Source: a virus. From it: DNA of 56,796 nucleotides. A program made the position numbers and the translations under genes. Below are positions 6,322 through 29,613 of this stretch, piece by piece. Location of the stretch: positions 64,001-120,796 of the IMG/VR virus record IMGVR_UViG_3300042261_000652; one strand, given 5' to 3'. The stretch's first letter is position 1. Every line of letters starts with the position of its first letter. The notes under the pieces were generated by a model that saw only the letters and a program-made list of their open reading frames with translations, was not told the DNA's origin and searched no databases.

Positions 6322-9300
6322 ATGCCAAACCAAACACAAATTAAGCCATTTGACGATCAGATTTTAGACGTTAAAAAGCAATCGCTGTATGCGAGATTGA
6401 AGAGATTATTCTCTACCGATGTTATTGTACGTAACGTAGGCGGCAAACAGCTTAAAATAAAAGATACCGATAATATTATGTACGCAACGGATAGAAATTC
6501 GTTGCGTGACAGATTTAATCGTATTCGCTCGACTGCATATAATGCATACACACGTGATTTTGCGATGTCATATCAAGCGGCACGGATGGATTTATTTCGT
6601 GACTATGATTGTGTGGGACCAGATACCATTATTCCATTACCGGATGGATCACGACCTACCATTGCAGAACTGGCCGAGAAATATAAAAATAATCCACAGG
6701 AAAGATTCTGGGTTTTTTCCTATGATCACGAAACCGATTCCATAAAACTTGGGAAAGCATATCATCCAAGGAAAAAGAAAGGCGTCCGCCAAGGTTATAA
6801 AATAACTTTTGATAATGGACAATCTATAATCGGAAGTTTGAAACATCCATTTTTAATGCGGGATGGAAGCAAAAAACGCCTTTTCGAATTGCGTGTTGGA
6901 GATTCTGTAATGCCTTTCTACGAAAAAGAATACGGATATAATAAACATGGATTTAAACGCTATCGTAGGTTATATAACTTTTCGAGAGGATGGCAGCAAG
7001 AGCATAAAATAGTCGCCGAGCAGTTTTATAGACCACTTGAAAAAAATGAAGTGATTCATCATAAAAACTTCAACGGGTCGGATAACACGCCCGAAAATCT
7101 TGAAATAATGGATTGGAAAGAGCATAAACGATTTCATTCCGACCACAACAAAAATGTATTATGGGGCGAGAAAAACTATAAAAATCAACTCCATAAGTTG
7201 AAGTCTCATCCAAATTATGTTAACCGGGCGGTTCATCATTGGAATGGAGAACGTGTCGGGTCGAGTAATCCATTTTATGGAAAACAACATACTATTGAAT
7301 CTAATGAGAAAAGATCAAAATCCTTAAAAGAAGCATTTATTAATAAAGATCAAACAGGAAAAAAGAATCCAAACTATAGAGATGATGTTACGTTTGATAA
7401 TGTAAAACAAAAAGCATTTGAATATTATAAAGAATATTCAAAAATAAACATATGGGATTTTATTAAACACATTCATTGCGATCATTCTACCCTTCAAAAT
7501 CGACTAAAAAAAGAAGGACATAACTGGAAATCTTTTAAACGAGAAGTTGAAAACACTTTAAATCATAAAATAATATCAATCGAGAGCGTTGGAGAGGTTG
7601 AGGTTTATGACGTTACAGTTGAAAAATATGAAAATTTTGCTACGGATAGTTGTATAGTCGGAAACACGATGGACATGGACCCCATAATGTGTTCAGCATT
7701 AGATATTTACGCAGATGAATGCTTGACCTACAATGAAGTAGGTAAAATGATAACAGTCCACTCGAATAATAATAACGTAAAACGAATTCTTGAGAATTTA
7801 TTCGATGAAATCTTAAATGTTAGATTTAATCTATGGTCGTGGGTGAGAAATATGTGTAAATATGGAGATTTCTATCTTAAATTATATATTACTCCCGAGT
7901 ATGGGATTTATATGGTAGAGCCAATTTCCGCATATAATGTTGAACGGATTGAGAATTCTGACCCCTCTAATAAGCGATATGTTAAATTTCAAATTCGTCC
8001 TACAGATACAACACAATCAGAGGTTCTCGAAAATTATGAAGTGGCGCATTTTCGTCTAATTAATGATAGTAATTTCTTGCCGTACGGTAAGAGTTTAATA
8101 GAAGGAGCTAGACGAGTTTGGAAGCAACTATCTCTGATGGAAGATGCTATGCTTATCCATCGCATTATGCGTGCTCCCGAAAAGCGAATTTTTTATACTG
8201 ATATTGGAAATATTCCGCCAAATGAAGTCGATGCTTATATGCAAAAAATGATGGATAAAATGAAGAAAATTCCATACATGGATGAGCAATCGGGCGATTA
8301 TAATTTGAGATTTAATCTTCAAAATATGGTGGAGGATTATTATATTCCAGTTCGTGGCGGTGACAGCGGAACAAAGATTGATACTCTTGGTGGTATGGAA
8401 TGGACTGGAACTGAAGATATAGAATATCTTCGCAATAAATTGATGTCTGCGCTCAAAATTCCCAAAGCATTTTTAGGATATGAAGAGGGAATTAGCGGAA
8501 AGGCGACCTTGGCATCGGAAGATGTTAGGTTTGCTCGCACAATTCAACGATTACAATGTATTATTGCATCGGAATTAGGCAAAATTGCCACCGTTCATTT
8601 ATATGCTCAGGGATATAGAGACGAGTCTCTTGTGGATTTTGAATTAGAATTAACCAATCCATCAACCATATTTGAGAAAGAAAAGGTTGAAATATGGTCT
8701 GATAAGGTTGCGGTTGCTACAGATATGGTGGAAAATAAGTTTTTCTCGTATAAGTGGGCTTATAAGAACATCTTCAATATGTCGGAGGATGATATCGAGA
8801 AAGTTAGAGAAGAAATCGTCGAGGATGCCAAACAAAGGTATAGATTCGCATCTATTGAAGAAGATGGGGATGATCCTGCCAAGCCGTTTAAGAAGATTGG
8901 GGGCAAAGGTGGCGATGACGAAGATGGCGACAAAGATATCGGAGATCTCGGCGGTGGTGGAGGTCTTGGGGGTGGAATGCATAGCAGTGGCGGTCTCGGA
9001 GGTTCAGACTTGGAAGATATGGATAAATTTGGAGAAGACGGCCCGGGTTTAGACGATTTGGCGGACATAGAGGGTGGCAATGAAGAAGGAGAAGGGGATG
9101 AAGACAAGGAAACGGAAGATGAAACGGGTCCAGAAAAGTCTAAAAATATAAAAGAATATGCAGATCCGGCCAAGGACCGAGATCAAAGTGGTGAACACGA
9201 TGCTCGTAGAGATCATCCTATGGCAGAAGATCCGCTCGGACAAGATGCCATGAATGCCAATACAAAGACAAATAGTGAACGTAAAAAGAAAAGTGCAATT

Positions 9301-9501
9301 GCCCATAATTATGAGGGGGGAAGTCCATTGAGCCGATTGCATGAACGAAATAAGCCCGTAGTTGATGGGGCTATGATCAAAAGTTTATCCGAATTTTTAA
9401 ATAAAACAGGAAAGAATATAAAAACGGAGCTTTTAAATGAAATTATAAGGGACAATCCGAATAATAAATCTATGATGGATGAGTCCAACATTTTAGAATA
9501 A
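6322..9501 (+). CDS. Portal protein (T4 gp20-like) with an intein and a long acidic/Gly-rich C-terminal extension
   Basis: Extein resumes with the gp20-like 'DPIMCSALDIYADE' motif; insertion begins 'CVGPDTIIPLPDG' (Hint block A); gene sits directly after the terminase. Confidence 0.8.
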   Translation: MPNQTQIKPFDDQILDVKKQSLYARLKRLFSTDVIVRNVGGKQLKIKDTDNIMYATDRNSLRDRFNRIRSTAYNAYTRDFAMSYQAARMDLFRDYDCVGPDTIIPLPDGSRPTIAELAEKYKNNPQERFWVFSYDHETDSIKLGKAYHPRKKKGVRQGYKITFDNGQSIIGSLKHPFLMRDGSKKRLFELRVGDSVMPFYEKEYGYNKHGFKRYRRLYNFSRGWQQEHKIVAEQFYRPLEKNEVIHHKNFNGSDNTPENLEIMDWKEHKRFHSDHNKNVLWGEKNYKNQLHKLKSHPNYVNRAVHHWNGERVGSSNPFYGKQHTIESNEKRSKSLKEAFINKDQTGKKNPNYRDDVTFDNVKQKAFEYYKEYSKINIWDFIKHIHCDHSTLQNRLKKEGHNWKSFKREVENTLNHKIISIESVGEVEVYDVTVEKYENFATDSCIVGNTMDMDPIMCSALDIYADECLTYNEVGKMITVHSNNNNVKRILENLFDEILNVRFNLWSWVRNMCKYGDFYLKLYITPEYGIYMVEPISAYNVERIENSDPSNKRYVKFQIRPTDTTQSEVLENYEVAHFRLINDSNFLPYGKSLIEGARRVWKQLSLMEDAMLIHRIMRAPEKRIFYTDIGNIPPNEVDAYMQKMMDKMKKIPYMDEQSGDYNLRFNLQNMVEDYYIPVRGGDSGTKIDTLGGMEWTGTEDIEYLRNKLMSALKIPKAFLGYEEGISGKATLASEDVRFARTIQRLQCIIASELGKIATVHLYAQGYRDESLVDFELELTNPSTIFEKEKVEIWSDKVAVATDMVENKFFSYKWAYKNIFNMSEDDIEKVREEIVEDAKQRYRFASIEEDGDDPAKPFKKIGGKGGDDEDGDKDIGDLGGGGGLGGGMHSSGGLGGSDLEDMDKFGEDGPGLDDLADIEGGNEEGEGDEDKETEDETGPEKSKNIKEYADPAKDRDQSGEHDARRDHPMAEDPLGQDAMNANTKTNSERKKKSAIAHNYEGGSPLSRLHERNKPVVDGAMIKSLSEFLNKTGKNIKTELLNEIIRDNPNNKSMMDESNILE
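6610..7665 (+). mobile_element. Intein in the portal gene carrying an HNH endonuclease domain
   Basis: Starts with Cys (tgt 6610) after 'FRDYD'. HNH-like 'HHKNFNGSDNTPENLEIMDWKEHKRFHSDHN'; block F/G 'VYDVTVEKYENFATDSCIVGN' followed by Thr; the flanks rejoin to a gp20-like sequence. Confidence 0.6.
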
Positions 9502-10595: not shown

Positions 10596-12151
10596 ATATA
10601 GATATTAAAGTTCTCACGAAAATATATTCTACATATGGAGTAAATGCCGTCAAGAACTATCCTCAAGTTGATGCAGTGCTTTCTAACTCGAAGCCATACG
10701 TTGATGTAGCTCCTGCTGAATGTCAATCGGTTCTTAAACGGGGCGGATATCAATTTATGACATCCAAGGGGTATTTTAAACCGTCATCGACTGATAGTGA
10801 TGATGGACAGGTGATTTATTATATAAAATCCAACAATTGGTTTATATGGGTATGGGAACATATGTTTCGCATTCTTACGGGGGAAAAACAACTTTCGAAA
10901 TGGATTCTTGGAAATGAGAAATATCCCAAAAGCAAAGCCGTCTCTTTTATGGAAACGTATAAAAAAATGGTGGGGATAGATACTGCTGCTTCTGCCAAAA
11001 ATAAACCGGAAATGCCATCGGATATGGATCGTGTAGCAGGAATTTTTGACTTGGATATTAAAGGTGGGGGCGAACGCATGGTTGATTATAAGCCTACAAT
11101 AGTAGATCCCACGGATGCGCTTATTGCTAAATTAACAAAGCAGGCTGGTTCAAAGAAGACTTTACCCGCCGATACGATAATTGATGTGGGACTGAAAGCT
11201 AAGAACGAAAAGAACACCAAACTTCTTCAGTTTCTCAGTACCATTAAGCCTTTAAATGAAAATTTTATAAAAAAGGATGATCTTCAGAAACTTATTCGTG
11301 GAATAATTAAAACTGTAATGGAAGGGGTTACGAAAAAGAATGATGAAAAACTTTGTGAGGATGGAGGAGCCGCAGTCGCAGGAGATGGCGGGATGTCTAC
11401 GACCTCAGATGTGTCTCCAGTAACAGGTCCAAATGCATTTAAGAGTAAAAAGTCAATTAATAAATCATCTCGGCCCGTTACGGAAAATGAGTTTGATGGT
11501 AAAGAGATGCCTAAACACAATGCGAAATGTACGCCCGAGGAAGAAGCGGAAGCTAATCGTATAGCTAAAGAAATATGGGGATGGCAGGTTGGACCCATGA
11601 GACTGCATTCTATTGATAGACTTGGAGGGAAACATTTTTGGAGTGATGAACATTCGGTATTAAAGAGCAGACACATTATTTGTAAGCAGCGGGATGGTGC
11701 GTGGATATATGTCAAGGGAGACGGCCTGCAAGCAATGTGGGTGAAATTTGAGAATGAACCATTGGCAGAAATAACAACAACCAATTCTGTGGCCGGGTAT
11801 AATATTCCTGGTGCATTTTCTCGTGCGGGGGGTAGTGCGAGGGGAGTGGAAAGTTCTGACAAGCTTGGCTATCAATTAACTAAAATTGGCAAAGAGGATA
11901 TGAAGTTAAAGGCCGACAAGCTTTGTGAAGATGTGGTAAAAAATCTTAACAATTTAAGAAGAGCGCAGTTAGCTCACGATGATGCTGTGCCGAGCGATGA
12001 TCCGGATGCGATAGAATGTCCCGATTGTGGTGGTGATATTGAAATAACTAGCCAAGGTCAAAGTCGAGGCTGCTGGTGGACACACGGAAAGTGTCCCGAA
12101 TGTGGATATAAATATCAGAATGATAATTTCGATCAGCAATATGATTTATGA
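10592..12151 (+). CDS. Hypothetical protein (519 aa) with C-terminal Zn-ribbon
   Basis: 'ECPDCGGD...GKCPECGYKY' at the C-terminus; translationally coupled to both neighbours. Confidence 0.5.
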   Translation: MNIDIKVLTKIYSTYGVNAVKNYPQVDAVLSNSKPYVDVAPAECQSVLKRGGYQFMTSKGYFKPSSTDSDDGQVIYYIKSNNWFIWVWEHMFRILTGEKQLSKWILGNEKYPKSKAVSFMETYKKMVGIDTAASAKNKPEMPSDMDRVAGIFDLDIKGGGERMVDYKPTIVDPTDALIAKLTKQAGSKKTLPADTIIDVGLKAKNEKNTKLLQFLSTIKPLNENFIKKDDLQKLIRGIIKTVMEGVTKKNDEKLCEDGGAAVAGDGGMSTTSDVSPVTGPNAFKSKKSINKSSRPVTENEFDGKEMPKHNAKCTPEEEAEANRIAKEIWGWQVGPMRLHSIDRLGGKHFWSDEHSVLKSRHIICKQRDGAWIYVKGDGLQAMWVKFENEPLAEITTTNSVAGYNIPGAFSRAGGSARGVESSDKLGYQLTKIGKEDMKLKADKLCEDVVKNLNNLRRAQLAHDDAVPSDDPDAIECPDCGGDIEITSQGQSRGCWWTHGKCPECGYKYQNDNFDQQYDL

Positions 12152-13011
12152 TTAGTTTAAGAAGAATGGTAGAATCGTACAATGTGTCGGGTCAATATTA
12201 CGACCTTGGGAGAGATTTTGCCAATTTTCGTCGGATGATTGATGGGGCTGACCAGCAAATCCGACAACAATATGAAAAGGCAATTTCTGAGAAATTGGTG
12301 GGTAAACGAGTCCGTGCCCGTGCCTCCCGTGGATATAAACAATATGTTAAAGATTATGAATTTGACATTGCCAGAATTACACTGGACGATTATTATGATA
12401 ATTTTGTAGTTGTCGCTTATGATTCTACTACTCCCAAAGCAAAAGAATATTTTCTAAAGCCCGGATTTAAAGTGCAGATTCTCGGGTCTTCTACAGGTCA
12501 ACCATCTCCGCAAAAAGGAAATAAACCCGGGGATGCGGTTTCGCAAAAGCCGACAGTTCCTCCGCAACAACATCAGACGCAATCGGATACGATGCCGCCT
12601 CAATCTACAGTACAACCGGGATCTTCAACGAATGAAAAACCTCTCAGAGAAGCGCCTGAAAAGCAGAGTGGCCTTTATGATGCATATCCAATCGATCAAA
12701 TTGAAAAGGATATTAAACAATGGCTTCCAACAATTCTCATCAAGCCCGATATAGCAATGCGGGACTTCATACGTGGACTTGGATGGCAACGTGATTTGGG
12801 ACGAGGAACGATAGTAGCATTGTATGATTTGAAAATTCCGTCGGATTATATTAAACCTGAAATTAAAGTAGATCATATAAAAGAATTGATCACGGGACAA
12901 AATATATCGCAGACCGGCTCAGCCTCCATTCAATATGATGTATCGCAGATGAAGCTGGATGATACGAAAGACGAGTGGCAAATTCGAATAAAAAAGACGA
13001 CGACAAAGTAA
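12148..13011 (+). CDS. Hypothetical protein (287 aa); candidate prohead-core/internal protein
   Basis: N-terminus 'MISLRRMVES' resembles the MIKLKxLLxE leader of the effector family; sits where T4 has the prohead core genes gp67/gp68, between portal and protease. Confidence 0.5.
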   Translation: MISLRRMVESYNVSGQYYDLGRDFANFRRMIDGADQQIRQQYEKAISEKLVGKRVRARASRGYKQYVKDYEFDIARITLDDYYDNFVVVAYDSTTPKAKEYFLKPGFKVQILGSSTGQPSPQKGNKPGDAVSQKPTVPPQQHQTQSDTMPPQSTVQPGSSTNEKPLREAPEKQSGLYDAYPIDQIEKDIKQWLPTILIKPDIAMRDFIRGLGWQRDLGRGTIVALYDLKIPSDYIKPEIKVDHIKELITGQNISQTGSASIQYDVSQMKLDDTKDEWQIRIKKTTTK

Positions 13012-13015
13012 GTGT

Positions 13016-14749
13016 ATGAATAACGAAAATAAAAAACTTTTGATGGAATGTATTACATTCGAAGCCGATCCACGGCTGCTTAAAGAATCTAGCGATCATC
13101 CAAATCAGCCATTCCGAGTGAGTGGAATTTTACAACGCAAAGGTAAAAAAAACCAAAATGGCCGTATTTACCCCGATGAAATTCTAATGCGTGAAGCTGA
13201 AAAATATTCAAACGTTTTCATAAAAGATAGACGGGCGATGGGTGAATTAGATCATCCGGAATGTAAAAGAGTTGGAACTGAGATACTTACGAAAGATGGA
13301 TGGAAAGATTTGCGTGATGTTAAAATCGGAGATATAATTCCGACGTTAAATACCACAACAGATACGTTGGAATATAATCCAATCGAACGAGTGATCAACG
13401 AACCATATAATGGTAAAATGATATCTATCATTGGAAAAAATATAGATACATTGGTTACTCCAAACCACAGATTTATTTTAAAAGATAGAAATGGAAAATT
13501 TCTGGAAAAAACCGCACGAGAAATGTTGGATATATCGAAAATAAATAAGAATCCACATTTATCAATTCCAGTTGTAGTTAATAATTGGAATGGATTTGCA
13601 TATGATGTATATAAAATAGATGCCATTCCAACAGAAGAAATATTAAAACACGCATCTTTAGAATTTGGAATTAAACAAACCACGACATTAAATTTAGATG
13701 CATCTGCATGGTTTTCATTTTTAGGATTTTATTTGGCCGAAGGACATTGTGATAATAGAGAAACTCAAAGCGGCTATGGAGTATACATCTCTCAAAACAA
13801 AGGAGAACTCGCCGATAAATTCCGAGAAATTCTATCACAATTAAGTCCAGAATTACAGTGGCACGAAAATGATAAGGGAGAAAACGCCATCATTTTTACG
13901 ACATATGATGCTCGTTTATGGACATATTTATCTAAATTGGGAAATCAATATACAAAATATATTCCCGATGATATAAAATTGGCATCTGTAGATTTACTTC
14001 AAAATTTATATGACTGGTATTTGAATGGAGATGGAACAGTTGTAGGAGAATATGATAGATCTTCCATATGTTCCGTATCCAAACAGTTAATGGAAGACTT
14101 TTACGAAGTAATATTAAAATTGGGAATGACCGGAGTTATTAAAGAACAAGTATCAAAGGATGATTATATGTTCGCCGGAAGATTAATAGAAATTAAAAAT
14201 AAAGTTCCATTGTATAGATTGTGGATTAAAACTGCGAAAGAGGTTTATCTAGATTTTCGATTTATAAAAATTGAAGAAGTCGATTACAATGATACCGTTC
14301 ATTGTGTGACTGTAAAGAACGGAACGTTTTATTGCCGGGATAGAAATAAAGCATTCTGGACTGGAAACTCCTCGGTGGTTAATTTAAAAAATGTCTCCCA
14401 CAATGTTATAGAAATGCATTGGCAGGGAGATGACTTGGTGGGCACAGTAGAAGTTCTCACAACTCCAAATGGAAATATTTTGCGGGAATTATTCAGAAAC
14501 GGAATTAAGTTGGGCATTTCAAGTCGTGGACTTGGAAGTTTAAAGAAAATTTCAGAAAGTTCGGCCATTGTGGGCGATGACTTTGAACTTATTGCGTTTG
14601 ATTTCGTTTCAAATCCCAGCACACAGGGGGCTTTTATGGCACCCCAAGGGCAAGTGGCATTATCAGAAGGCATTATAAAAAATCCAATGACTAATAAATG
14701 GGAACGCACTGACGATATCATTAGAAATATTCTCTCAGAATTGGGTTAA
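13016..14749 (+). CDS. Prohead protease (T4 gp21-like) interrupted by an intein
   Basis: 'GELDHPE' then insertion; extein resumes 'SSVVNLKNVSHNVIEMHWQGDDLVGT...GISSRGLGSL', matching recalled gp21 'GELNHP...MWWKGNDVYG...SSRGLGS'. Extein length is ~208 aa against 212 aa for gp21. Confidence 0.75.
   Translation: MNNENKKLLMECITFEADPRLLKESSDHPNQPFRVSGILQRKGKKNQNGRIYPDEILMREAEKYSNVFIKDRRAMGELDHPECKRVGTEILTKDGWKDLRDVKIGDIIPTLNTTTDTLEYNPIERVINEPYNGKMISIIGKNIDTLVTPNHRFILKDRNGKFLEKTAREMLDISKINKNPHLSIPVVVNNWNGFAYDVYKIDAIPTEEILKHASLEFGIKQTTTLNLDASAWFSFLGFYLAEGHCDNRETQSGYGVYISQNKGELADKFREILSQLSPELQWHENDKGENAIIFTTYDARLWTYLSKLGNQYTKYIPDDIKLASVDLLQNLYDWYLNGDGTVVGEYDRSSICSVSKQLMEDFYEVILKLGMTGVIKEQVSKDDYMFAGRLIEIKNKVPLYRLWIKTAKEVYLDFRFIKIEEVDYNDTVHCVTVKNGTFYCRDRNKAFWTGNSSVVNLKNVSHNVIEMHWQGDDLVGTVEVLTTPNGNILRELFRNGIKLGISSRGLGSLKKISESSAIVGDDFELIAFDFVSNPSTQGAFMAPQGQVALSEGIIKNPMTNKWERTDDIIRNILSELG
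13262..14368 (+). mobile_element. Intein with LAGLIDADG endonuclease domain inside the prohead protease
   Basis: Starts with Cys (tgt 13262) after 'DHPE'. LAGLIDADG motifs 'FLGFYLAEGHC' and 'LYDWYLNGDGT'; block F/G 'VHCVTVKNGTFYCRD...AFWTGN' followed by Ser. Confidence 0.6.
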
Positions 14750-14802
14750 TTTGATTTGACGGCATTATACTTGTATGATAGTATGATGCAATAAAGTCAA
14801 AT

Positions 14803-16491
14803 ATGAATGATGCAATCATCAAATGGATAGCGGATAATTTGCAATATTTTCGTGGATTAATTTGCAAAAAATGCAAGCGAGAATGGTTTGAAAAGTATGG
14901 ATTCTTAGATAAATGGCAAGAAATACACGATATTACGTTATTTCTCGATGCATTAAATCCAACATTTCCTCAGCGAGTATGGCATATTGTCCATGATCAT
15001 TTGTCGACAATAAAATGCGCCAATCCTTCCTGTCAAAACTCTCCAAAATTCTGGTCTTTTAATATTGGATATTTGAGAACTTGTTCTACATCTTGTGCTC
15101 AATATGACCCACTTACTCAAGAAAAAATACAAATCACCAATCTCGATAAATATGGTTATAAATATGGGTTGCAGAATCCGGATATAATTAAGCGAAGAAT
15201 ATCTTCCATTCGAGAAAAATATGGCGTAAATAATATTTCACAAGTCGATGGCATATCGGAAAAGAAACAAGAAACGTGTTTAAAAAATTATGGAACGAAA
15301 TGGTTTTTGGAAAGAAGTGATATTGTTAGAGAATGTTTGGTGAGAAAGTACGGAGTAGAAAATGTTCAACAAGTTGACGAAATATCATCAAAAACATCTC
15401 AAACCAGAACAAATAATTTTTATGATGAATTAGTCGGGTCGGACAGATTTAAAGGAAAAGTAGTTCCATCATTTTCCAAGGAAGAATATGATGGAGTGGG
15501 AAAAGAATATAAATTTAAATGTACGTCGTGCTTTTCTGAATTCTCCTATGTTTTACGGTGGGACCGCATTCCGAGATGCCCCATTTGTTTCAAAGGATCA
15601 TCCATATTTGAACAAGAAATTACAAATTATATCAAAACGCTATTGCCTGCGACTGATATAATGGAAAATGTGAAGTCGATCTTATCCAACAATAGAGAGT
15701 TGGATATTTATATTCCATCTAAAAATTTGGCGATTGAGTGCAATGGATTATTTTGGCACGGGGAAGTTGGAGGAAATAAAAATAGAAATTATCATTTAAA
15801 TAAGACAATTGAATGTGAATCTAAAAATATCCATTTAATTCATATTTTCGAAGATGAGTGGATTTTGTCTCCGGATATTATTAAAAACAGATTGGCCCAC
15901 ATAATGGGATTACACAAAGTTGCCAAATCCATATATGCCAGAAATTGTGAAATAAAAGAAGTATCAAATAAAGATAAAAATAATTTTCTTAATGCCAATC
16001 ATATTCAAGGAACCGATAGAAGTAAAATACGATTGGGATTATTTTATAATAATGATATGGTCGCAGTTATGACATTTGGAAGTAGGCGAATATTTACCAA
16101 TTCTGTCTATATTGAAAATGAGTATGAACTTATACGATATGCCACTTCTATTCCAGTTGTGGGCGGAGGAAGTAAGCTGATGACGCATTTTATAAAAACA
16201 TATTCGCCAAAGAAAATTATCTCGTATGCGGATAGGCGATGGACTTATTATAAAAATAATTTATATGAGCGGATTGGGTTTAAAAAAGTATCAGATGGAA
16301 CACCCAACTATTGGTATTTTGGTCGTCAAGGAAATTATCGTAGATTTCATCGATTTGGATTTGCAAAACATACTTTATCTAAGCGATTGGCCTTTTTTGA
16401 TCCGAGTCTCACGGAATGGGAGAATATGAAAAATAATGGATGGGACAGGATTTGGGATTGTGGAAGTTTAAAGTATGAAATGGCATTTTAA
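14803..16491 (+). CDS. Zn-finger protein with KYGVxNxxQVD tandem repeats and a Vsr/DUF559-like PD-(D/E)xK endonuclease domain; candidate free-standing homing endonuclease
   Basis: 'CKKCKREW', 'CANPSCQN...CSTSC'. Repeats 'REKYGVNNISQVDGISEKK / LKNYGTKWFLERSD / VRKYGVENVQQVDEISSK'. Nuclease core 'ELDIYIPSKNLAIECNGLFWHGE' matches the Vsr/DUF559 pattern (VDF...AIEvDG.FWHg). Confidence 0.6.
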   Translation: MNDAIIKWIADNLQYFRGLICKKCKREWFEKYGFLDKWQEIHDITLFLDALNPTFPQRVWHIVHDHLSTIKCANPSCQNSPKFWSFNIGYLRTCSTSCAQYDPLTQEKIQITNLDKYGYKYGLQNPDIIKRRISSIREKYGVNNISQVDGISEKKQETCLKNYGTKWFLERSDIVRECLVRKYGVENVQQVDEISSKTSQTRTNNFYDELVGSDRFKGKVVPSFSKEEYDGVGKEYKFKCTSCFSEFSYVLRWDRIPRCPICFKGSSIFEQEITNYIKTLLPATDIMENVKSILSNNRELDIYIPSKNLAIECNGLFWHGEVGGNKNRNYHLNKTIECESKNIHLIHIFEDEWILSPDIIKNRLAHIMGLHKVAKSIYARNCEIKEVSNKDKNNFLNANHIQGTDRSKIRLGLFYNNDMVAVMTFGSRRIFTNSVYIENEYELIRYATSIPVVGGGSKLMTHFIKTYSPKKIISYADRRWTYYKNNLYERIGFKKVSDGTPNYWYFGRQGNYRRFHRFGFAKHTLSKRLAFFDPSLTEWENMKNNGWDRIWDCGSLKYEMAF

Positions 16492-16509
16492 TTTATATTT
16501 ATAAACAAT

Positions 16510-16824
16510 ATGTTAAACAAAAAAGAATTTAAAAAGTTGGTTAAGCAATGTATTGCTGAAGTTATAACAGAAACTTCAAACGAATCGGTATGCCAACAAT
16601 GCAATGTTCATAATCTAAAAGAAATTGCGGGTGAGGAGCCACTGTATGTGGAATTTGTTTCTCAACGCAAAGGAGAGAATCCATTTACGTGGAGGGGAAC
16701 GAAGTGGGAATATGTCAATGCCAAATATCCGGATGGAAAGATTGACATTGGAGTTTATTCTTTTGCTGATGATATGGTCATATCATATTCAACATTTCAG
16801 CGATGGGTAGGTAATGCCAAATAA
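16510..16824 (+). CDS. Small hypothetical protein (104 aa), paralog of the 16830 gene
   Basis: Shares N-terminus 'FKKLVKQCIAEVITE' with the next gene's 'LKQLIKECIVEVLTE'; ATATTTATAA box 12 nt upstream. Confidence 0.5.
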   Translation: MLNKKEFKKLVKQCIAEVITETSNESVCQQCNVHNLKEIAGEEPLYVEFVSQRKGENPFTWRGTKWEYVNAKYPDGKIDIGVYSFADDMVISYSTFQRWVGNAK

Positions 16825-16829
16825 TTTAT

Positions 16830-17240
16830 ATGACCACGACGGGACTCAAACAGTTAATTAAAGAGTGTATTGTGGAAGTCTTAACGGAAGATCTTTCCGA
16901 AGGATTTGACCCTCTATCTTGGGGGCCAAACAATCCTCAAGAAAATCCATATCCGGCGTGGAATGCTAAAATGAGAACAATGGAAGAAGATAAGTCCGAC
17001 AGTCGACCCCACACTCCACAGACGCAAGGTGATGGTTTTGACGAGTTTCGTAAAGAAATGGGAACGGATCGAGTAAACGAGTTTTTATCAAAGTTTGGGT
17101 TGGGGCCAAATTATATTCCAAAAAAACCAAAAACATATACGTGTCCAAAATGTAAAGGGCAAAATGCCACTTATGCCGAAGAAGGAGCAGATTGCGATGG
17201 AGGACAAAATGAAGTGGTTTTGAACTGTCCCGATTGTTAA
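16830..17240 (+). CDS. Small hypothetical protein (136 aa) with C-terminal CxxC...CxxC Zn-ribbon, paralog of the 16510 gene
   Basis: Conserved leader 'LKQLIKECIVEVLTE'; 'CPKCKG...NCPDC'. Confidence 0.5.
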   Translation: MTTTGLKQLIKECIVEVLTEDLSEGFDPLSWGPNNPQENPYPAWNAKMRTMEEDKSDSRPHTPQTQGDGFDEFRKEMGTDRVNEFLSKFGLGPNYIPKKPKTYTCPKCKGQNATYAEEGADCDGGQNEVVLNCPDC

Positions 17241-17279
17241 TATATCAAACTTAAAATATAATAACTTTACAATTTGCAA

Positions 17280-17312
17280 AATCTTGCATATGATATTGTC
17301 ATATGCAAGATT
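17280..17312. promoter_or_regulatory. Perfect 14-bp inverted repeat (AATCTTGCATATGA-tattg-TCATATGCAAGATT) containing the 17303 start codon
   Basis: Arms 17280-17293 and 17299-17312 are exact reverse complements; the ATG at 17303-17305 lies inside the right arm. Confidence 0.5.
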
Positions 17313-18316
17313 GTTTGTTTTCTGATACCAAATTAAATTATGCCGACATCATTCTTCGGCATAATAAATCCGCCGTCTCCACGAGAAGTGATTGTGACAT
17401 ATCATTCAAACTCGGCGATAAAATTTATGCTGCGCCCGTATGTTGCAGCAATATGAAATCCATTTTAAATCGACATATTTGTAAAATATTCGATGATCGG
17501 AATTGGTTTTATGTTTATCATCGCATAGATGGTGTGCAAGACGTTGAGCGATTCGTATGGGACGCTAATTGTCGGGAATCGTCTATGTGGAAATATGGCG
17601 GAGTTATTGATAGAAAATTTAATACAATATCAATATCCGTTGGCGTTGGCGATGAATGGTGTGATTTAATCAGTCGGCTACATATTGAAGGATTGCGAGT
17701 TGATGCTATTACCGTTGACGTGGCGCTGTCTTACAATGATAATGTGATTCCCATCATAAATCGTATCAAAGAAAAATTTCCCAAGGCTTATTTAATTGTG
17801 GGAAATGGATGTATCAAAGAATGGATTAGTTGGTTGGAAGATTTGGGAGTTAATTGTGCAAAAATCGGAATTGGAGTTTCGAGTGCCTGTAGAACTCGGC
17901 AATATACGGGATTTGGATCAACTACGGTATCATCTTTGATTGAATGTGTAGAGGCTGCCAAGACGATTGATATTATGAGTGATGGTGGGTTGACTGTAGA
18001 CGCCAATGGAGAAGTTTGGATTGGAGATATTAATAAGAGTCTGGTTTTAGGAGCCGATATTGTTATGTCGGGCGCACTATTCAAAAACTGCATAGATTCT
18101 CCATCGATTATTGAGGGCTATTATGGTAATGCGTCAGAGCACGCCAAGCAAACAAAACGTCATATAGAAGGAACTAAACTGCATGTCGAAACGAACGGCT
18201 TGACTATTAGTCAAATGTGTGATTTAATAGAGGACAGTATCAAATCAGGAATTAGTTATAGCGGAGGGAACAAAATATCGGATTTGCGAAATTGTAGATA
18301 TGAAATCGTCCACTAA
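17303..18316 (+). CDS. IMP dehydrogenase / GMP reductase family protein (catalytic TIM-barrel core, no CBS domains seen)
   Basis: 'KIGIGVSSACRTRQYTGFG' aligns with IMPDH 'GIGPGSICTTR' (catalytic Cys loop); 'IMSDGGLTVDANGEVWIGDINKSLVLGADIVMSGALF' aligns with 'IIADGGI..GDI.KALA.GA..VM.GS'. Confidence 0.6.
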   Translation: MQDCLFSDTKLNYADIILRHNKSAVSTRSDCDISFKLGDKIYAAPVCCSNMKSILNRHICKIFDDRNWFYVYHRIDGVQDVERFVWDANCRESSMWKYGGVIDRKFNTISISVGVGDEWCDLISRLHIEGLRVDAITVDVALSYNDNVIPIINRIKEKFPKAYLIVGNGCIKEWISWLEDLGVNCAKIGIGVSSACRTRQYTGFGSTTVSSLIECVEAAKTIDIMSDGGLTVDANGEVWIGDINKSLVLGADIVMSGALFKNCIDSPSIIEGYYGNASEHAKQTKRHIEGTKLHVETNGLTISQMCDLIEDSIKSGISYSGGNKISDLRNCRYEIVH

Positions 18317-18528
18317 GTCGCCCCATTCAGTGTTTCTTATTCACCACGAAGTGTTAAGAGCTATTATAGAAAACAATCTCACTTTAATAGGACGGGATGG
18401 GGAATTACGTCGCCAAGAGTGTTATTAGACATTGTAGATGGCTATGAAGTTGCAATTTATAAACCGGAAGAGGGAAGTTTCAAGTTAAATATTTCCGATA
18501 TAATTCAAAATTTATTGAATAAATTAAA

Positions 18529-18801
18529 ATGAGCCGCTTTGAACATATTAAAGAACAATTGGCCGAACTCAACGGAGATGCATATCTATTCGACGGATTT
18601 GAAGAAGGTATGGTCGGGTATACTCAACAATACGGCAGAGCTCCCGTTGCGTGTTACGATTATGATGCGTGTATAAAAATATTAGTCGAACGAGACGATA
18701 TGTCCGAAGAAGAAGCAATAGAGTTTTTTGAATTCAACACGGTAGGATGTGGAGGGTTGGGAGCGAATACACCTGCCATATTGCGGCAAGTTAAGAGTTG
18801 A
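18529..18801 (+). CDS. Small hypothetical protein (90 aa)
   Basis: ORF with an acidic core; its stop codon overlaps the -35 box of the downstream promoter. Confidence 0.45.
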   Translation: MSRFEHIKEQLAELNGDAYLFDGFEEGMVGYTQQYGRAPVACYDYDACIKILVERDDMSEEEAIEFFEFNTVGCGGLGANTPAILRQVKS

Positions 18802-18825
18802 CAATTTTCTGTCGTTCGATATAAT
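18798..18825 (+). promoter_or_regulatory. Sigma70-type promoter: TTGACA-N16-TATAAT
   Basis: Exact -35 (18798-18803) and exact -10 (18820-18825) hexamers with a 16-nt spacer, 52 nt upstream of the 18878 ATG; the only consensus match noticed in the window. Confidence 0.5.
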
Positions 18826-18877
18826 GGTTGCACGATTAGCCAAATTGGTGAAAAAATTAACAATTTAAACGATTAAC

Positions 18878-19966
18878 TTGATTATGCTCAATGCAACGCT
18901 TGTAATAGAAGATGGGATTAAAAAGTTTAGGAGTAAAGACTACTCTTATAATTTTAGGATGTCCGATGGATATTTTCAGAGATGGGGAAAAACCACAAAT
19001 GATGATCCTCAGCAATCGCCAATGCCTGAGATTTTGGACATCGAAACTTCTATTGATGGCTGCCCCAAGGGCAAAGTTTCCGGACAAATTTGTACATTCT
19101 GTTACAAAGGAAATTCGGCAGGTAAGCCGTCATATATGACCTTTGAGACTTTCAAGGCGATTATAGACAAGTTTCCTAAAGTGAATGGTATTCACGCATT
19201 GACTCAAATGGCTGCGGGAATTACCAGTTTTAATGCCAATCCCGACATCTTCAAAATTTTCGAATATGCTCGGCAGCAAACCATTATTCCAAATTTAACA
19301 ATCTCCGGACGAGATACTTTGACCGATGAACAGATTGCTAAATTGGTATCTTTGATTGGGGCGTCGGCGTTTTCCATTTATAAGGAAGATAAGGATCAAT
19401 GTTATGATTTGATCAGTCGCTTTCTCAAGGCGGGTCTTAAGCAATGCAATATTCACTATATGATCAGCGAGGAAACGCTTCCATTCTTATACGAAATACT
19501 GGACGACATCAAGAAGGATAAACGACTCGCAGGTCTGAATGCAATTGTCTTTCTTGGCTTAAAGCCAAAGGGTCGTGGTAATACATATCATGTACTTCCA
19601 TATGAGGAATATGACAAGTTGGTGTCATTTTGTTTTGCTAACAATATTCCATTTGGATTTGATTCGTGCGGCTCTCCAAAGGTGGAAAAATCAGTCGCCG
19701 AAAGTCGGACATTATCTCCTGCTGCTAAAACCACAATTCTGCAAGCTTGCGAACGATGTGAATCCAATTGCCACAGCTATTATATCAACGTGAATGGAAT
19801 ATCATTTCCGTGTAGCTTTGCAGAGGATATTGAAGTTGGAACTGATATCTTAAAAATAAATGATTTCTTGACCGAGGCGTGGAATTCGCCAATTTCGGAG
19901 AAATGGAGAGATAGGTTGCACGGATTAAATCGGCAGTGCCCCTTATATCCTGAGATTAGATTATAA
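18878..19966 (+). CDS. Cys-rich hypothetical protein (362 aa); possible non-canonical radical-SAM/SPASM-like Fe-S protein (weak)
   Basis: 'CPKGKVSGQICTFCYKG' (C-x9-C-x2-C) near the N-terminus; C-terminal cluster 'CERCESNCHSYYINVNGISFPC'. Confidence 0.45.
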   Translation: MIMLNATLVIEDGIKKFRSKDYSYNFRMSDGYFQRWGKTTNDDPQQSPMPEILDIETSIDGCPKGKVSGQICTFCYKGNSAGKPSYMTFETFKAIIDKFPKVNGIHALTQMAAGITSFNANPDIFKIFEYARQQTIIPNLTISGRDTLTDEQIAKLVSLIGASAFSIYKEDKDQCYDLISRFLKAGLKQCNIHYMISEETLPFLYEILDDIKKDKRLAGLNAIVFLGLKPKGRGNTYHVLPYEEYDKLVSFCFANNIPFGFDSCGSPKVEKSVAESRTLSPAAKTTILQACERCESNCHSYYINVNGISFPCSFAEDIEVGTDILKINDFLTEAWNSPISEKWRDRLHGLNRQCPLYPEIRL

Positions 19967-19971
19967 TACAT

Positions 19972-20295
19972 ATGAAAATTAGAAACAAATTCGTCAGTAA
20001 TAGTTCATCAAGCTCATTCGTGGTGGTGGGAATTAAAATTTCGATGGATCGATTTGAGGAATTGGGCGGCGAAAAAGTATTTGAGAAATTGGCGAAATAT
20101 AGAGATTTCCCCGAAGGTGAGGATTGTGCTATTATTGGTACTCGGATTGGAACATGGGACGATACGAGTGGGATTATTGAGACTAAATCATTTGAGACAT
20201 TACAGGATGAGGCGAACAAGTTAAAGACAACTCTCTCGCCGCTGATGGGGAACGATGTTAAAATCGACATTATTTACGGAGCAACTTACGGATAA
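19972..20295 (+). CDS. MKIRN-leader family paralog 1 (107 aa)
   Basis: N-terminus 'MKIRNKFVSNSSSSSFVVVG'. Confidence 0.6.
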   Translation: MKIRNKFVSNSSSSSFVVVGIKISMDRFEELGGEKVFEKLAKYRDFPEGEDCAIIGTRIGTWDDTSGIIETKSFETLQDEANKLKTTLSPLMGNDVKIDIIYGATYG

Positions 20296-20300
20296 AGAGT

Positions 20301-20672
20301 ATGAAGACTAGAAATGGATTCGTAAGCAATAGCAGTTCATCATCGTTCTTAGTGGCTTTAAAAAAAATAGCACCGTGCAGCCATTGTGGGCGATCCGATC
20401 CCGATTTTTTTGACGTGGTGACTAGAATGGGAAATGATGGATGGGTTGAGGAAACAAAGTTGGAAGCTCGTGGTGTTAAGGAGTGTATAGATAAATACTT
20501 CGAATATTCTAAGGAAGATCAGGGGCCGTTGCGCAATAAATTGATGGCAATGGAGGCGGATGGATATGAAGTCGGGATAGTCGATATTGCATATCACGAC
20601 CAAATCACCGATGACATTTTTCAAAATTTAAAAAATAGTGGAGCACTCACGGTGTTAGAAACGATATATTAA
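20301..20672 (+). CDS. MKIRN-leader family paralog 2 (123 aa)
   Basis: N-terminus 'MKTRNGFVSNSSSSSFLVAL'; CSHCG motif. Confidence 0.6.
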   Translation: MKTRNGFVSNSSSSSFLVALKKIAPCSHCGRSDPDFFDVVTRMGNDGWVEETKLEARGVKECIDKYFEYSKEDQGPLRNKLMAMEADGYEVGIVDIAYHDQITDDIFQNLKNSGALTVLETIY

Positions 20673-20679
20673 TAAACAT

Positions 20680-21039
20680 ATGAAAATTAGAAATGGATTT
20701 GTATCAAATAGCAGCAGTTCTTCATTCATAGTAATGGGGTATCCAGTAACAGAGGATATATTTGCACAGTTGCAGGTGAAATTTCCAATGAAAGATGGAG
20801 AAAGGGTATTGGAATGGGAAGATCGGCTGCAAATGGAAATTGGATATCCTATTAGATTGTTATACGTAAAAGGTGCGACTCAGTATATTATAGGGACGGT
20901 TATTGCCAATGCCGATGGAAACTGTCTCGAATCTGTAACATATTCGATGGATCAACTTAAAGCCTTAGCTCAGCAAACTTCTGAAAAATTGGGTATTAGC
21001 GGTGAGTGTAAATTAATGATTGGAACTCGCCCCTGGTAA
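20680..21039 (+). CDS. MKIRN-leader family paralog 3 (119 aa)
   Basis: N-terminus 'MKIRNGFVSNSSSSSFIVMG'. Confidence 0.6.
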   Translation: MKIRNGFVSNSSSSSFIVMGYPVTEDIFAQLQVKFPMKDGERVLEWEDRLQMEIGYPIRLLYVKGATQYIIGTVIANADGNCLESVTYSMDQLKALAQQTSEKLGISGECKLMIGTRPW

Positions 21040-21049
21040 AACAAATATT

Positions 21050-21556
21050 ATGAAAATCCGAACGTGTTTTGTTAGTAATAGTAGTACTTCCAGTTGTATT
21101 TGCAATTTGTGCGGCAGAGAGGCAACTGGAATGGACATGTGCGCAGGTGATGCGGGTATGTTCGTATGTGTTAACGGACATACTATTTGTCAAGATGAAG
21201 CTGCGGAAAGCTTTGAGCAATGGATGGCAGAGAGCAATGAGTCGGAAGCCCTAGATGATGGTTATGGGAGCGGATATTATTATGACGTGCCTGAAAAATA
21301 TTGCCCATTCTGTCTTATGATTGAGTTTGCTCAGCCAGATCTAAAGCAGTATCTTAAAATTAAAACGAAGATTACTGAGGATGAGGCATTCGCTACAGTA
21401 AAAGCGGCAAATAAACGACGGAAAAAGCTTTACGACGCCGAGTATGTCATGTATACTTTGACCAAGACAGGCGAAAAGATGGAAAATTTGATTGCCGAGA
21501 TTAAAGCCAAATATACAACATATAAAGAATTTAGCAAATCGCTTTATGAAAATTAG
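21050..21556 (+). CDS. MKIRN-leader family paralog 4 (168 aa), Cys-rich
   Basis: Start re-set from track ORF 21020 to the internal ATG 21050 giving 'MKIRTCFVSNSSTSSC'; 'CNLCG...CAGD...CVNGHTIC'. Confidence 0.55.
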   Translation: MKIRTCFVSNSSTSSCICNLCGREATGMDMCAGDAGMFVCVNGHTICQDEAAESFEQWMAESNESEALDDGYGSGYYYDVPEKYCPFCLMIEFAQPDLKQYLKIKTKITEDEAFATVKAANKRRKKLYDAEYVMYTLTKTGEKMENLIAEIKAKYTTYKEFSKSLYEN

Positions 21557-21995
21557 AAATAAATTTGTCAGTAATAGCAGTAGTTCCAGCTTTATTGTAA
21601 TCGACTCGTGTGCCGATGAAACGGAAGTGGAAAGATTGCGCAATCTATATGGCAATAAGGAAATTTTAACCATAGGACCGACGTTTGGTTGTAATAAGTT
21701 TGGATGGGAGTATGGCGAATATTTCGATTTTGAGGATAAATTGATGTTTGCGCTATTGCAAGCGAAGTATGTTCGTGAAACATATCCCAAATGGATGATT
21801 ATGTTGCACGGAGTTTTGAAAAATGCGCTCAATGTGAAAGAAATACAATGGACTTGTGCAGATGAAGGATATATAGATCATCAATCTGCCAGTTATGAAG
21901 GAGAAAATACGGAGATGTTTATCTCCGAGGACAAATTAAGAAGTTTCTTATTTTCTAAACAATCGCATATTGAGACAGGAAATGATAACGAATGA
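21546..21995 (+). CDS. MKIRN-leader family paralog 5 (149 aa)
   Basis: Start re-set from track ORF 21492 to the ATG at 21546 giving 'MKIRNKFVSNSSSSSFIVID'; overlaps the previous gene by 11 nt. Confidence 0.55.
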   Translation: MKIRNKFVSNSSSSSFIVIDSCADETEVERLRNLYGNKEILTIGPTFGCNKFGWEYGEYFDFEDKLMFALLQAKYVRETYPKWMIMLHGVLKNALNVKEIQWTCADEGYIDHQSASYEGENTEMFISEDKLRSFLFSKQSHIETGNDNE

Positions 21996-22477
21996 AAATT
22001 CGAACCAATTTTGTAAGTAATAGTTCTTCCAGTTCTTTTATTGTAAATCGAAGACATGAGTATAATAAAGACCGGCCACTATTATTGTCGTCAGAGCAAG
22101 AGCAATTGTTAAAAGATAATGGATTTCGTTTGGGGATATGTTATTTTCCAAATCAAATTGCCAACGATGAAGTATTTGAGTTGCCATTGAGCGCCGATGA
22201 ACTTGCAATTGCAAATTGGTGCAAGTCGGTAACATGCAATCAAGACGATGAAATTGGATTTTTACTAAGACATAGAATATCATTTATGGCCGATGTTCAC
22301 TATGAGCATAGTAGTATGTTATATGACGGCACATCCGATGTCTTGCTTATAGCCGAAAATTTCGGAAAGCAGATGCAAATGGCGGGTGAGGGCAAAATAA
22401 ACTTTGATGTTGGAGCGAATCGAGCACCAATAACAAGAACGACGGGAAAACAATATTTGGAATTAAGACATTTATGA
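21992..22477 (+). CDS. MKIRN-leader family paralog 6 (161 aa)
   Basis: 'MKIRTNFVSNSSSSSFIVNR'; ATGA overlap with the previous gene. Confidence 0.6.
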   Translation: MKIRTNFVSNSSSSSFIVNRRHEYNKDRPLLLSSEQEQLLKDNGFRLGICYFPNQIANDEVFELPLSADELAIANWCKSVTCNQDDEIGFLLRHRISFMADVHYEHSSMLYDGTSDVLLIAENFGKQMQMAGEGKINFDVGANRAPITRTTGKQYLELRHL

Positions 22478-22782
22478 AAACACGATTAGGATTTGTTAGC
22501 AACAGTTCAAGCTCCAGCTTTTGTATTCTAGGAGTCAAGATTGACACCAATGCTGAAAAAATAATAAACAGCAATCACAGAACACTACCGTCAAGAATTA
22601 GAATTCAATATTCGATTTCACACAATGGTAGTAGATATGTTGGTATAGAAGCATTCCGCATATTGGATGATGAGACGCCCCGCCAGATTAAACAAGAACT
22701 TGTGGAGTCACTTCAAAGGGTCGGCGTTGAAATAAAAATGACCGAAATAGACTGGATAGAAGATGAAGGATATAACGGATGA
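22474..22782 (+). CDS. MKIRN-leader family paralog 7 (102 aa)
   Basis: 'MKTRLGFVSNSSSSSFCILG'; ATGA overlap. Confidence 0.6.
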   Translation: MKTRLGFVSNSSSSSFCILGVKIDTNAEKIINSNHRTLPSRIRIQYSISHNGSRYVGIEAFRILDDETPRQIKQELVESLQRVGVEIKMTEIDWIEDEGYNG

Positions 22783-23027
22783 AAATACGATCAGGATTTG
22801 TTAGTAATAGTTCGAGTTCCAGCTTTTGTGTTAATCTCAATATGATTTCAGCACGAGATGTGATGGTGCTTATGGATTATCATAAATTGGATAACCATGA
22901 TTGGTGGGATATAAGTGTACAATATGATCGTGGGTTAATCGTAGGTACAACAAATATGGATAATGGTGATCTCGATGAATATCTGAGTGCAAATGGTGTT
23001 AATACGGAATTATTTAATTGGTCATGA
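22779..23027 (+). CDS. MKIRN-leader family paralog 8 (82 aa)
   Basis: 'MKIRSGFVSNSSSSSFCVNL'; ATGA overlap. Confidence 0.6.
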   Translation: MKIRSGFVSNSSSSSFCVNLNMISARDVMVLMDYHKLDNHDWWDISVQYDRGLIVGTTNMDNGDLDEYLSANGVNTELFNWS

Positions 23028-23626: not shown

Positions 23627-23688
23627 TATGAAACGAATAGATCGTCACAAAAAAAATGCCGCTTTAACATTGGCAAAAATTAGATCGA

Positions 23689-24884: not shown

Positions 24885-24925
24885 AGTATTATTGCATATT
24901 TTTTAATGTCGGATATATAAAATTG

Positions 24926-25264: not shown

Positions 25265-25290
25265 ATATATAGTTGATTAAGTTTAAAATA

Positions 25291-29566: not shown

Positions 29567-29585
29567 TTAAATCATTGATTATCAA

Positions 29586-29613
29586 GGCGTTGGAGAAATC
29601 CAACGCCTTTTTT
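29586..29613 (+). terminator. Rho-independent terminator
   Basis: GGCGTTGGA-gaaa-TCCAACGCC stem-loop followed by TTTTTT, 20 nt after the capsid gene stop. Confidence 0.7.

Follow-up and report, generated by a model that had tools for sequence, protein, structure and literature searches.

Hef-like nucleases carrying putative DNA-modification domains among the head genes of an uncultured T4-like phage

Hef-type enzymes of phages have been assigned to the Vsr-like EDxHD family of nucleases (Taylor et al. 2011, PMC3239194), and Hef of phage U5 is reported to cleave nrdB (PMC2988022). Genes coding for Hef-like proteins are free-standing, adjoin conserved genes and are found in several copies per genome (PMC3296691). 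Mom domains of jumbo phages are usually fused to restriction-fold nucleases and have been read as parts of systems resembling restriction-modification (R-M) (Iyer et al. 2021, PMC7824862). Among the DNA-binding fingers known from homing nuclease genes of phages is DUF723 (PMC10448857). The present study concerns a stretch of 56,796 nt from an uncultured virus (IMG/VR record IMGVR_UViG_3300042261_000652, positions 64,001 to 120,796), the whole of which is called the window here, and three open reading frames (ORFs) in it: ORF A directly behind the prohead protease gene, ORF B behind the major capsid protein gene and ORF C, which converges on an adaptor-like gene (Table 1). Our analysis leads us to propose, with a probability of about three in four, that ORF A and ORF B are free-standing Hef-like EDxHD homing endonucleases with C-terminal modifying domains and that ORF C is a decayed relative. 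With ORF A and ORF B, new members are added to a known kind of protein, and fusions of Mom to a nuclease have already been described; the 'Hef-like homing endonucleases' of one literature and the jumbo-phage Mom-nuclease fusions of another are the same proteins, read in two ways. The methyltransferase variant represented by ORF B is undescribed, and unnamed in the databases searched. Membership in the Hef-like/EDxHD group is ordinary for large T4-like phages; what is added here is that the modification domains are recognised, that a methyltransferase variant without a name is brought out and that a modularity linked to the insertion site is described.

It was found by megablast that the ORF A and ORF B loci have no nucleotide-level match among 50,697 phage records (the phage collection referred to below), and relatives were therefore sought by protein comparison. 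In all, 240 related loci were collected and all 56 ORFs of the window were mapped onto each of them; the alignments of the ORF A and ORF B families are called A1 and A2, respectively. ORF A matches the 'homing endonuclease' family PHROG 3339 over its full length (residues 26-560 aligned with positions 22-533 of the 536 in the profile), and 5135 homologues were obtained at E ≤ 1e-5. A protein search of the phage collection gave matches in 419 records. These include proteins annotated as 'Hef-like homing endonuclease' in RaK2 and K64-1 and as 'homing endonuclease' in CP220, which cover 80-99% of the length of ORF A, and the best identity to any record of the collection is 44%. The label given to the family by PADLOC is 'HEase', and an NCBIfam search of the ORF A, B and C proteins returned nothing useful. 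ORF B has at least 280 homologues, all of them nameless ('hypothetical protein') except one 'very-short-patch-repair endonuclease'. Because its match to PHROG 3339 is confined to residues 39-192 (E 2.6e-5), ORF B is not a full member of that family.

The N-terminal parts of both proteins are made up of zinc-binding motifs and repeats. In ORF A a helical domain with a zinc knuckle is followed by four DUF7487 repeats of about 23 residues each, with KYG at 116/120, 139, 162 and 182, and by a zinc ribbon, the region of which was aligned by hhalign with the DUF723-like unit of ORF C homologues. ORF B begins with a C2H2 finger in which C18 is the sole residue invariant across the family (A2), and its homologues match ROS/MucR and zf-C2H2 models. 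Its two repeats have KYG at 109 and 132, and a precomputed NUMOD3 (PF07460) match is present in some homologues. In both AlphaFold models the DUF7487 repeats fold as a helix-loop array (helices 103-117, 126-140, 151-163, 172-183 and 192-212 in ORF A; 92-110, 119-133 and 142-158 in ORF B), a putative modular DNA-binding array. Among ORF B homologues the number of repeat copies ranges from 0 to at least 7, and the number of fingers also varies widely (A2). No mention of DUF7487 was found in the literature searched. A preliminary description of the window, made from the sequence alone, had placed the three ORFs at exactly the coordinates given in Table 1 and had noted zinc motifs at the N-termini, and both points hold. 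Its two or three repeats of about 20 residues are indeed repeats of the DUF7487 kind, and the count is correct for ORF B and too low for ORF A.

The core which follows is a Vsr-type nuclease fold in ORF A and ORF B alike. When A1 and A2 were compared by hhalign they aligned with 98.9% probability (E 1.2e-17) over A 75-356 and B 62-259, a range that takes in the zinc knuckle, the repeats and the nuclease, and the ORF C family aligned with A1 with 96% probability (E 4.3e-9); the likeness among the three families is well beyond chance. By profile, the catalytic domain of I-Bth0305I (3r3p) is the sole significant match among solved structures (E 7.5e-5 for A1 and 2.4e-3 for A2). ORF B was aligned by hhalign to E25, D51, H64 and H69 of Vsr, and its homologues exceed or come near the Pfam Vsr cut-off, with Pfam Vsr matches in P0029 and P0093. 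The core motif reads ELDIYIP...AIECNGLFWHGE in ORF A and RFDFYIP...IIEIDGETFH in ORF B, and the EDxHD residues E178, D204, H222 and D240 of ORF B are invariant or nearly so. The preliminary description had already read a Vsr-like core in ORF A and ORF B and had taken ORF C for a third, minimal copy; these comparisons bear out both statements, and a nuclease fold, the absence of which would have spoken against its reading, is found.

A third to half of each protein was overlooked in that description, namely the C-terminal Mom-like and methyltransferase domains, which may change how these enzymes work. In ORF A residues 370-562 form a Mom-like GNAT domain, for which Mom of phage Mu (8bv8) is the top Foldseek match. 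In a weak hhalign alignment (probability 44%, E 2e-4) R111, S124, D149, R151 and Y159 of Mu Mom correspond to R445, S457, D477, R479 and Y488 of ORF A, and R445, D477, R479 and Y488 are each at least 90% conserved in A1. The model of ORF A has two helices, 517-528 and 538-544, lying between the last strands, with no residue-level alignment to the HTH-like insertion of Mom (HTH, helix-turn-helix; Mom residues about 175-209) that Mom requires to be active. In ORF B the nuclease is followed by a helical linker, which has no Pfam match (residues ~290-450 searched) and the invariant residues of which include F321, P330, W381, W395, R408 and G410 (A2), and then by a methyltransferase. Motif I (D462-P-C-C-G-F-G-G), E487 and motif IV (F530-T-S-I-P-Y535) of the latter are all invariant (A2). 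Motif IV, as T-S-I-P-Y, differs from the (D/N/S)-P-P-(Y/F/W) of amino-methyltransferases in an invariant Ile at the first Pro position. The methyltransferase matches the PADLOC profile mad2 of the MADS defence system (E 1.7e-13) and PDB 5dnk (E 3e-5), and it has 34% identity to a Vibrio phage protein that stands alone and bears the annotation 'N-4 cytosine-specific DNA methylase'. From these residues the C-terminal domains of ORF A and ORF B apparently are catalytically intact. The module of linker and methyltransferase is a common one in metagenomes, where at least 95 clusters (50% identity) match it at E ≤ 1e-30, and in most of the top matches it is the C-terminus of proteins of 550-830 residues. 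Among the records of the phage collection a full-length match to residues 290-611 was obtained in LR756508.1 only. No name for the methyltransferase-type architecture was found in the databases, and no paper describing it was found in the literature searched.

Comparison with described systems places these proteins between several of them. I-Bth0305I, the EDxHD prototype (PDB 3R3P, PMC3239194), has its DNA-binding region N-terminal to the nuclease, as in ORF A and ORF B, and the E, D, H and D of the motif (D196, H213 and D222 in I-Bth0305I; E25, D51, H69 and D97 in Vsr) are kept in ORF B. It is, however, an intron-encoded protein of 266 residues with two NUMOD2/HTH motifs and without a C-terminal extension, whereas ORF A and ORF B are free-standing and combine zinc fingers and DUF7487 repeats with a modification domain of 190-320 residues. 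With the family that includes Hef of phage U5 and the Hef-like proteins of RaK2, K64-1, CP220 and LIMEstone1, ORF A shares the profile over its whole length and ORF B only its N-terminal and nuclease parts; ORF A is at most 44% identical to any record of the phage collection, and its N-terminal 100 or so residues are special to copies next to the protease gene. The jumbo-phage fusions of Mom and nuclease (PMC7824862) have the same architecture as ORF A. In the homing nucleases with zinc fingers of the DUF723 and CapR kinds the fingers stand on T5orf172 nuclease domains (PMC10448857), whereas in the homologues of ORF C, as in the protein of locus L003 described below, zinc-ribbon repeats of DUF723 type stand on a Vsr-like domain; ORF C itself has lost its ribbons. 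Mu Mom (PDB 8BV8; GNAT superfamily, Pfam PF25680), whose fold the C-terminal domain of ORF A shares, is a stand-alone enzyme of 241 residues for broad modification of the genome against host restriction, whereas the domain of ORF A is part of what is probably a site-specific mobile nuclease. Vsr of E. coli (PDB 1CW0) is a stand-alone T:G mismatch repair nickase of 156 residues, with a zinc site of its own and without a targeting array or mobility. A repair function of Vsr type was considered for the window proteins and rejected on their targeting arrays, sporadic distribution and family annotation. Type IIG/IIC enzymes are single-chain R-M enzymes in which a nuclease, a gamma-type methyltransferase and a target-recognition domain act in host defence. 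ORF B is like them in having a nuclease and an amino-methyltransferase on one polypeptide, but its nuclease is Vsr-like, it is a sporadic phage insert beside a capsid gene and its targeting apparently lies in the finger and repeats; no target-recognition domain of R-M type was recognised in it by Pfam or Foldseek. It was not accepted as a member of Type IIG, although a similar way of working is possible.

The distribution of these genes in the relatives of the window is sporadic. Among loci with enough flanking sequence, the site after the prohead protease gene carries a nuclease gene in 8 of 67 (all Hef-like), the site after the major capsid gene in 9 of 59 (seven of ORF B type and two of Mom type) and the site after the adaptor-like gene in 7 of 28 (six Hef-like and one like ORF C). 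In the relatives closest in the C-extein of the protease (L161-L185, 79-91% identity) the gene was present on three contigs only (L164; L177 and L178; L184). The boundary of the insert is clean: in L162, which has no nuclease gene, homology to the window stops at 14750 and resumes at 16509, and the flanking genes are 2-3 nt apart. For ORF B it was observed that its identity is uncoupled from that of the neighbouring capsid protein (84% vs 41% in L046 and 59% vs 58% in L081). The preliminary description had stressed the placement beside conserved structural genes and had suggested comparing presence and absence in related phages; the placement is confirmed for all three ORFs, and the genes are far from universally conserved. 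Its reading of free-standing homing endonucleases agrees with PHROG 3339, with the GenBank name 'Hef-like homing endonuclease' and with the sporadic presence of the genes, homing itself being presumed. It also coincides with published knowledge, because Hef-type enzymes had already been placed in the EDxHD family. Collaborative homing of ORF A with the intein of the protease gene was considered and discarded as a general rule, since each is found without the other: of the 67 loci, 6 have the nuclease only, 2 have both and 59 have neither, and in L054 there is the intein only.

The distribution also points to a modular construction. Thirty-eight homologues adjacent to the protease gene align from ORF A residues 1-19, and 102 homologues located elsewhere align from a median residue 104, so that the first 100 or so residues of ORF A are confined to copies beside the protease gene. 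The N-terminus of ORF B (residues 15-145) lay directly downstream of the capsid gene in 12 of its 13 occurrences, and in two of these a single ORF joins it to a nuclease of A type and a Mom-like body, as in L019:12855..14519. This fits a scheme in which N-terminal modules set the target and C-terminal effector modules are interchangeable, though shared descent at one site could yield part of the pattern. Two further observations concern the site behind the capsid gene. In L019 an ORF of 252 residues (11913..12671), with a GIY-YIG motif read by eye, follows the capsid gene and precedes the chimeric Hef-like gene, and the site may therefore be a hot spot that gathers nuclease genes of different families in tandem. 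In LR756508.1 (L001, its positions 154000-180000) a Hef-like fragment at 20584..21423, which matches ORF A 270-558 with 37% identity, lies between the capsid gene and the ORF B homologue, and there are six Hef-like places in this 484-kb record.

For the proposed homing endonucleases the most likely mechanism is as follows. The N-terminal part, made up of a locus-specific domain or C2H2 finger, a zinc knuckle or ribbon and the DUF7487 array, would bind a long stretch of DNA close to the point where the gene itself inserts, in a co-infecting relative that is without the gene, and the Vsr-like domain would cut at that site. Recombinational repair from the carrier genome would then fill the empty site with a copy of the gene, along with markers next to it, during the co-infection. 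The C-terminal domain, a Mom-like aminoacyl/acyl transferase in ORF A and an amino-methyltransferase in ORF B, would most likely mark the carrier's own DNA at or close to the cognate site and so prevent the cut. For binding, cutting and copying by repair we lean on family precedent and on the distribution data, and the step of self-protection is one that we infer. It is a tentative proposal, and one we regard as possible though rather doubtful, that Hef-like enzymes are self-immunising homing endonucleases in which the fused domain marks the cognate site in the carrier genome. If true, it would explain how the nuclease spares its own genome when the target is an unchanged conserved neighbour gene. 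There would then be two swappable chemistries on one targeting chassis at one site, Mom-type adenine acylation, exemplified by the ORF A type and the chimera of L019, and amino-methylation, exemplified by the ORF B type. N-termini which track the site, together with effectors which swap, offer a testable model for target choice and self-protection, and the array of zinc fingers and repeats, if it proves programmable, could be of possible interest to enzyme engineers.

Several observations weigh against the reading of ORF A and ORF B as homing endonucleases with modifying domains. Of the EDxHD residues D301 and H319 are present in ORF A, but an invariant histidine, H331, stands where I-Bth0305I has D222 and Vsr has D97. 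The position that corresponds to S124 of Mom is Ser (S457) in only about 60% of A1, and the hhalign match of the ORF A family to Mom is the weak one given above. For the C-terminal domain of ORF B, Foldseek returned generic class I methyltransferase folds only, with no assignment of the substrate as DNA or RNA. The divergence of ORF A homologues at the protease site roughly keeps pace with that of the flanking genes (79% with 87%, 50% with 70%), and LR756508.1, the closest large genome, has both the ORF A and the ORF B gene at the same sites; taken together, these two facts also fit genes that have long been resident and have been lost repeatedly, instead of homing often. A search for the target site, in which 24 carrier and 59 empty protease alleles were compared over 331 nt round the DFVSNPS block, gave no column with p<1e-5. 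Because no base separates carrier from empty alleles, we can propose neither a target site nor an immunity polymorphism, and the 3' region of the protease gene gives no evident sign of immunity by sequence change. The target of ORF A might span the junction that is disrupted by the insert. The lack of a distinguishing base is compatible with self-immunisation and is no proof of it. DNA cleavage, the location of the target, homing and the role in self-protection are also properties that we infer from relatives and distribution, which is to be counted on the same side.

Two other explanations have to be weighed with these points in mind. ORF A and ORF B could be single-chain R-M-like weapons, whose domain modifies the whole phage genome while the nuclease degrades unmodified DNA of the host or of a superinfecting phage, and this is what has been predicted for jumbo-phage Mom domains fused to domains of restriction-endonuclease fold (PMC7824862). 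We consider it unlikely, as a genome-wide system does not need several paralogues that are tied to single intergenic sites and whose N-termini track the site. It is true that the catalytic motifs are kept in both modification domains, that the methyltransferase of ORF B resembles Mad2 of the MADS defence system and that the distant relative LR756508.1 keeps both genes at the same sites; the genes are, however, absent from most close relatives, their long and variable arrays of zinc fingers and repeats suggest long and rare targets and not short restriction sites, and the prototype Hef reportedly cleaves a specific gene region (PMC2988022). The R-M-like and homing explanations are not exclusive, and a site-restricted version of R-M is the same thing as the self-protection step above. 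Lower still do we rate the chance that the C-terminal domains no longer modify DNA and are only extra modules for DNA binding or base flipping that aid target recognition. It is common for homing endonucleases to take up unrelated modules for DNA binding (PMC3239194, PMC10448857), homologues have Ser, Gly, His, Asp or Asn at the S457 position and motif IV of ORF B is S-I-P-Y instead of the canonical (D/N/S)-P-P-(Y/F). Against these stands the complete or nearly complete conservation, among sequences of only 40-50% identity, of R445, D477, R479 and Y488 in ORF A and, in ORF B, of E487 and of motifs I and IV. Such a pattern is expected of active enzymes and not of binding scaffolds.

ORF C is best read as the decaying, truncated remnant of a gene for a zinc-ribbon Vsr-like nuclease. 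It aligns with residues 223-327 (49% identity) of a protein of 327 residues that is encoded at the same site in L003 and has three DUF723-like zinc-ribbon units, no trace of which is left in the window. Of the EDxHD set, the three positions that were mapped, E25, D51 and H69, are present. The profile of the ORF C family has no match among solved structures, and the single sequence gave chance-level matches only. That ORF C is instead a minimal but functional nuclease, which the phage might use for nicking or repair, for example, seems improbable to us even though its frame is intact and every conserved core residue is kept: only the last 105 residues of the L003 gene product are matched, the rest being gone, and ORF C is without any recognisable DNA-binding module. 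Nine of the 19 aligned homologues are also shorter than 190 residues, and five of those shorter than 150, which would favour a working short form; many of the short ones, however, come from contigs 1-4 kb in length and are possibly fragmentary. ORF C is separated from the gene at 52595..53062 by a spacer of 152 nt, which contains a perfect 17-nt tandem repeat (ATATGATGATATTCAAT, 3.1 copies, 52523..52574); this repeat could be a candidate regulatory or protein-binding site.

Table 1. Position, strand and supporting details of the nuclease genes, their predicted parts and the neighbouring genes in the window (pLDDT, predicted local distance difference test)
Feature	Coordinates	Strand	Details
ORF A, 562 residues, Hef-like homing endonuclease (predicted)	14803..16491	+	PHROG 3339, E 8.3e-119
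ORF A, N-terminal helical domain and zinc knuckle	14803..15102	+	C72/C77/C94/C98 conserved in A1
ORF A, four DUF7487 'KYGVxN' helix-loop repeats	15109..15438	+	Pfam DUF7487, E 4.9e-14, residues 107-206
ORF A, CxxC...CxxC zinc ribbon, related to DUF723 type	15460..15597	+	C240, C243, C259, C262 invariant in A1
ORF A, Vsr-like (EDxHD-type) nuclease	15598..15906	+	D301, E312, N314, H319, H331, K334, E350-D351-E352
ORF A, Mom-like GNAT-fold domain	15910..16488	+	R445, S457, D477, R479, Y488
Inserted segment carrying just ORF A	14751..16508 (1758 bp)	+	between the protease stop and the start of gene 16510..16824
ORF B, 611 residues, Hef-type N-terminus and nuclease fused to methyltransferase	29713..31548	+	AlphaFold pLDDT 87.5
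ORF B, C2H2 zinc finger	29755..29832	+	C18, C21, H34, H39 read from the sequence; weak Pfam zf-C2H2 matches
ORF B, two DUF7487 repeats, preceded by NUMOD3-like 'HSxExKxKI'	29974..30186	+	Pfam DUF7487, E 3.6e-8, residues 95-156
ORF B, Vsr-like nuclease, full EDxHD set	30235..30552	+	E178, D204, D217, H222, D240, K243; A2 columns invariant
ORF B, helical linker	30580..31062	+	residues ~290-450; confident helices in the model; many invariant residues in A2
ORF B, class I S-adenosylmethionine methyltransferase	31075..31545	+	residues ~455-611; motifs invariant in A2
ORF C, 137 residues, nuclease domain only	52029..52442	-	conserved E25, D51, E62, D66, H69, E114, D116 retained
Prohead protease gene (T4 gp21 type)	13016..14749	+	Pfam Peptidase_S77, LAGLIDADG_3, Intein_splicing; directly upstream of ORF A
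Major capsid protein gene	27791..29566	+	tblastn matches annotated major capsid protein; conserved gene upstream of ORF B
Structural gene, head-tail adaptor match	50863..52041	+	PHROG 211, E 1.3e-10; convergent with ORF C

A distant T4-like phage, known from metagenomes only, is the source of the window, which is its head and packaging module. The major capsid protein shares 49.5% identity with its counterpart in LR756508.1, an uncultured phage of 484 kb, and as much as 84% with those of IMG/VR contigs. The G+C content of the nuclease genes is low against a window mean of 38%: among the 56 ORFs, ORF B ranks lowest (30.3%), ORF C second (30.9%) and ORF A fifth (32.9%). An intrinsic terminator at 29584..29609 (11-bp stem and T-run) lies between the capsid gene and ORF B, and because it is strong, ORF B is probably not reached by read-through from the capsid transcript. 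The adaptor-like gene and ORF C are convergent, with an overlap of 13 nt at the 3' end of the former.

With three inteins and three Vsr-like nuclease genes, the head-gene module is crowded with selfish elements. The inteins lie in the genes for the large terminase (3244..6258), the portal protein (6322..9501) and the prohead protease (13016..14749), have a G+C content of 32-34% and are lacking in most relatives. That of the terminase is of LAGLIDADG type (about residues 191-650; the matches of relatives are split into 8-191 and 650-1003), that of the portal protein is of HNH type (residues 104-448; matches split into 12-104 and 448-856), and that of the protease is again of LAGLIDADG type (13274..14368, about residues 87-451; relatives match 1-86 and 451-577 only). 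Between the protease and capsid genes the window has approximately 9 kb of extra genes (16510..25995 compared), including 17303..18316, which matches a PHROG 'dehydrogenase' family; in relatives at about 60% capsid identity (L047-L080, L191-L193) the capsid gene follows the protease gene at a distance of only about 4 kb. By this comparison the head module has been enlarged by insertions besides the nuclease genes. The gene directly upstream of the capsid gene (26247..27758), for which no family match was obtained, has conserved ends (residues 1-88 and ~290-503), and its middle part is absent or unalignable in most relatives.

Sigma-70-like promoter leads were noted at 14756..14784 and 29677..29705, upstream of ORF A and ORF B. 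The number of such sequences was 8 in the ORF A region (shuffled mean 11.6, sd 3.9) and 21 in the ORF B region (shuffled mean 14.2, sd 4.2), neither being clearly above expectation. An exact TATAAATA, which we take to be the consensus of T4 late promoters, is present at 31543..31550, where it overlaps the stop codon of ORF B and lies upstream of a YopX-like gene (31596..32159).

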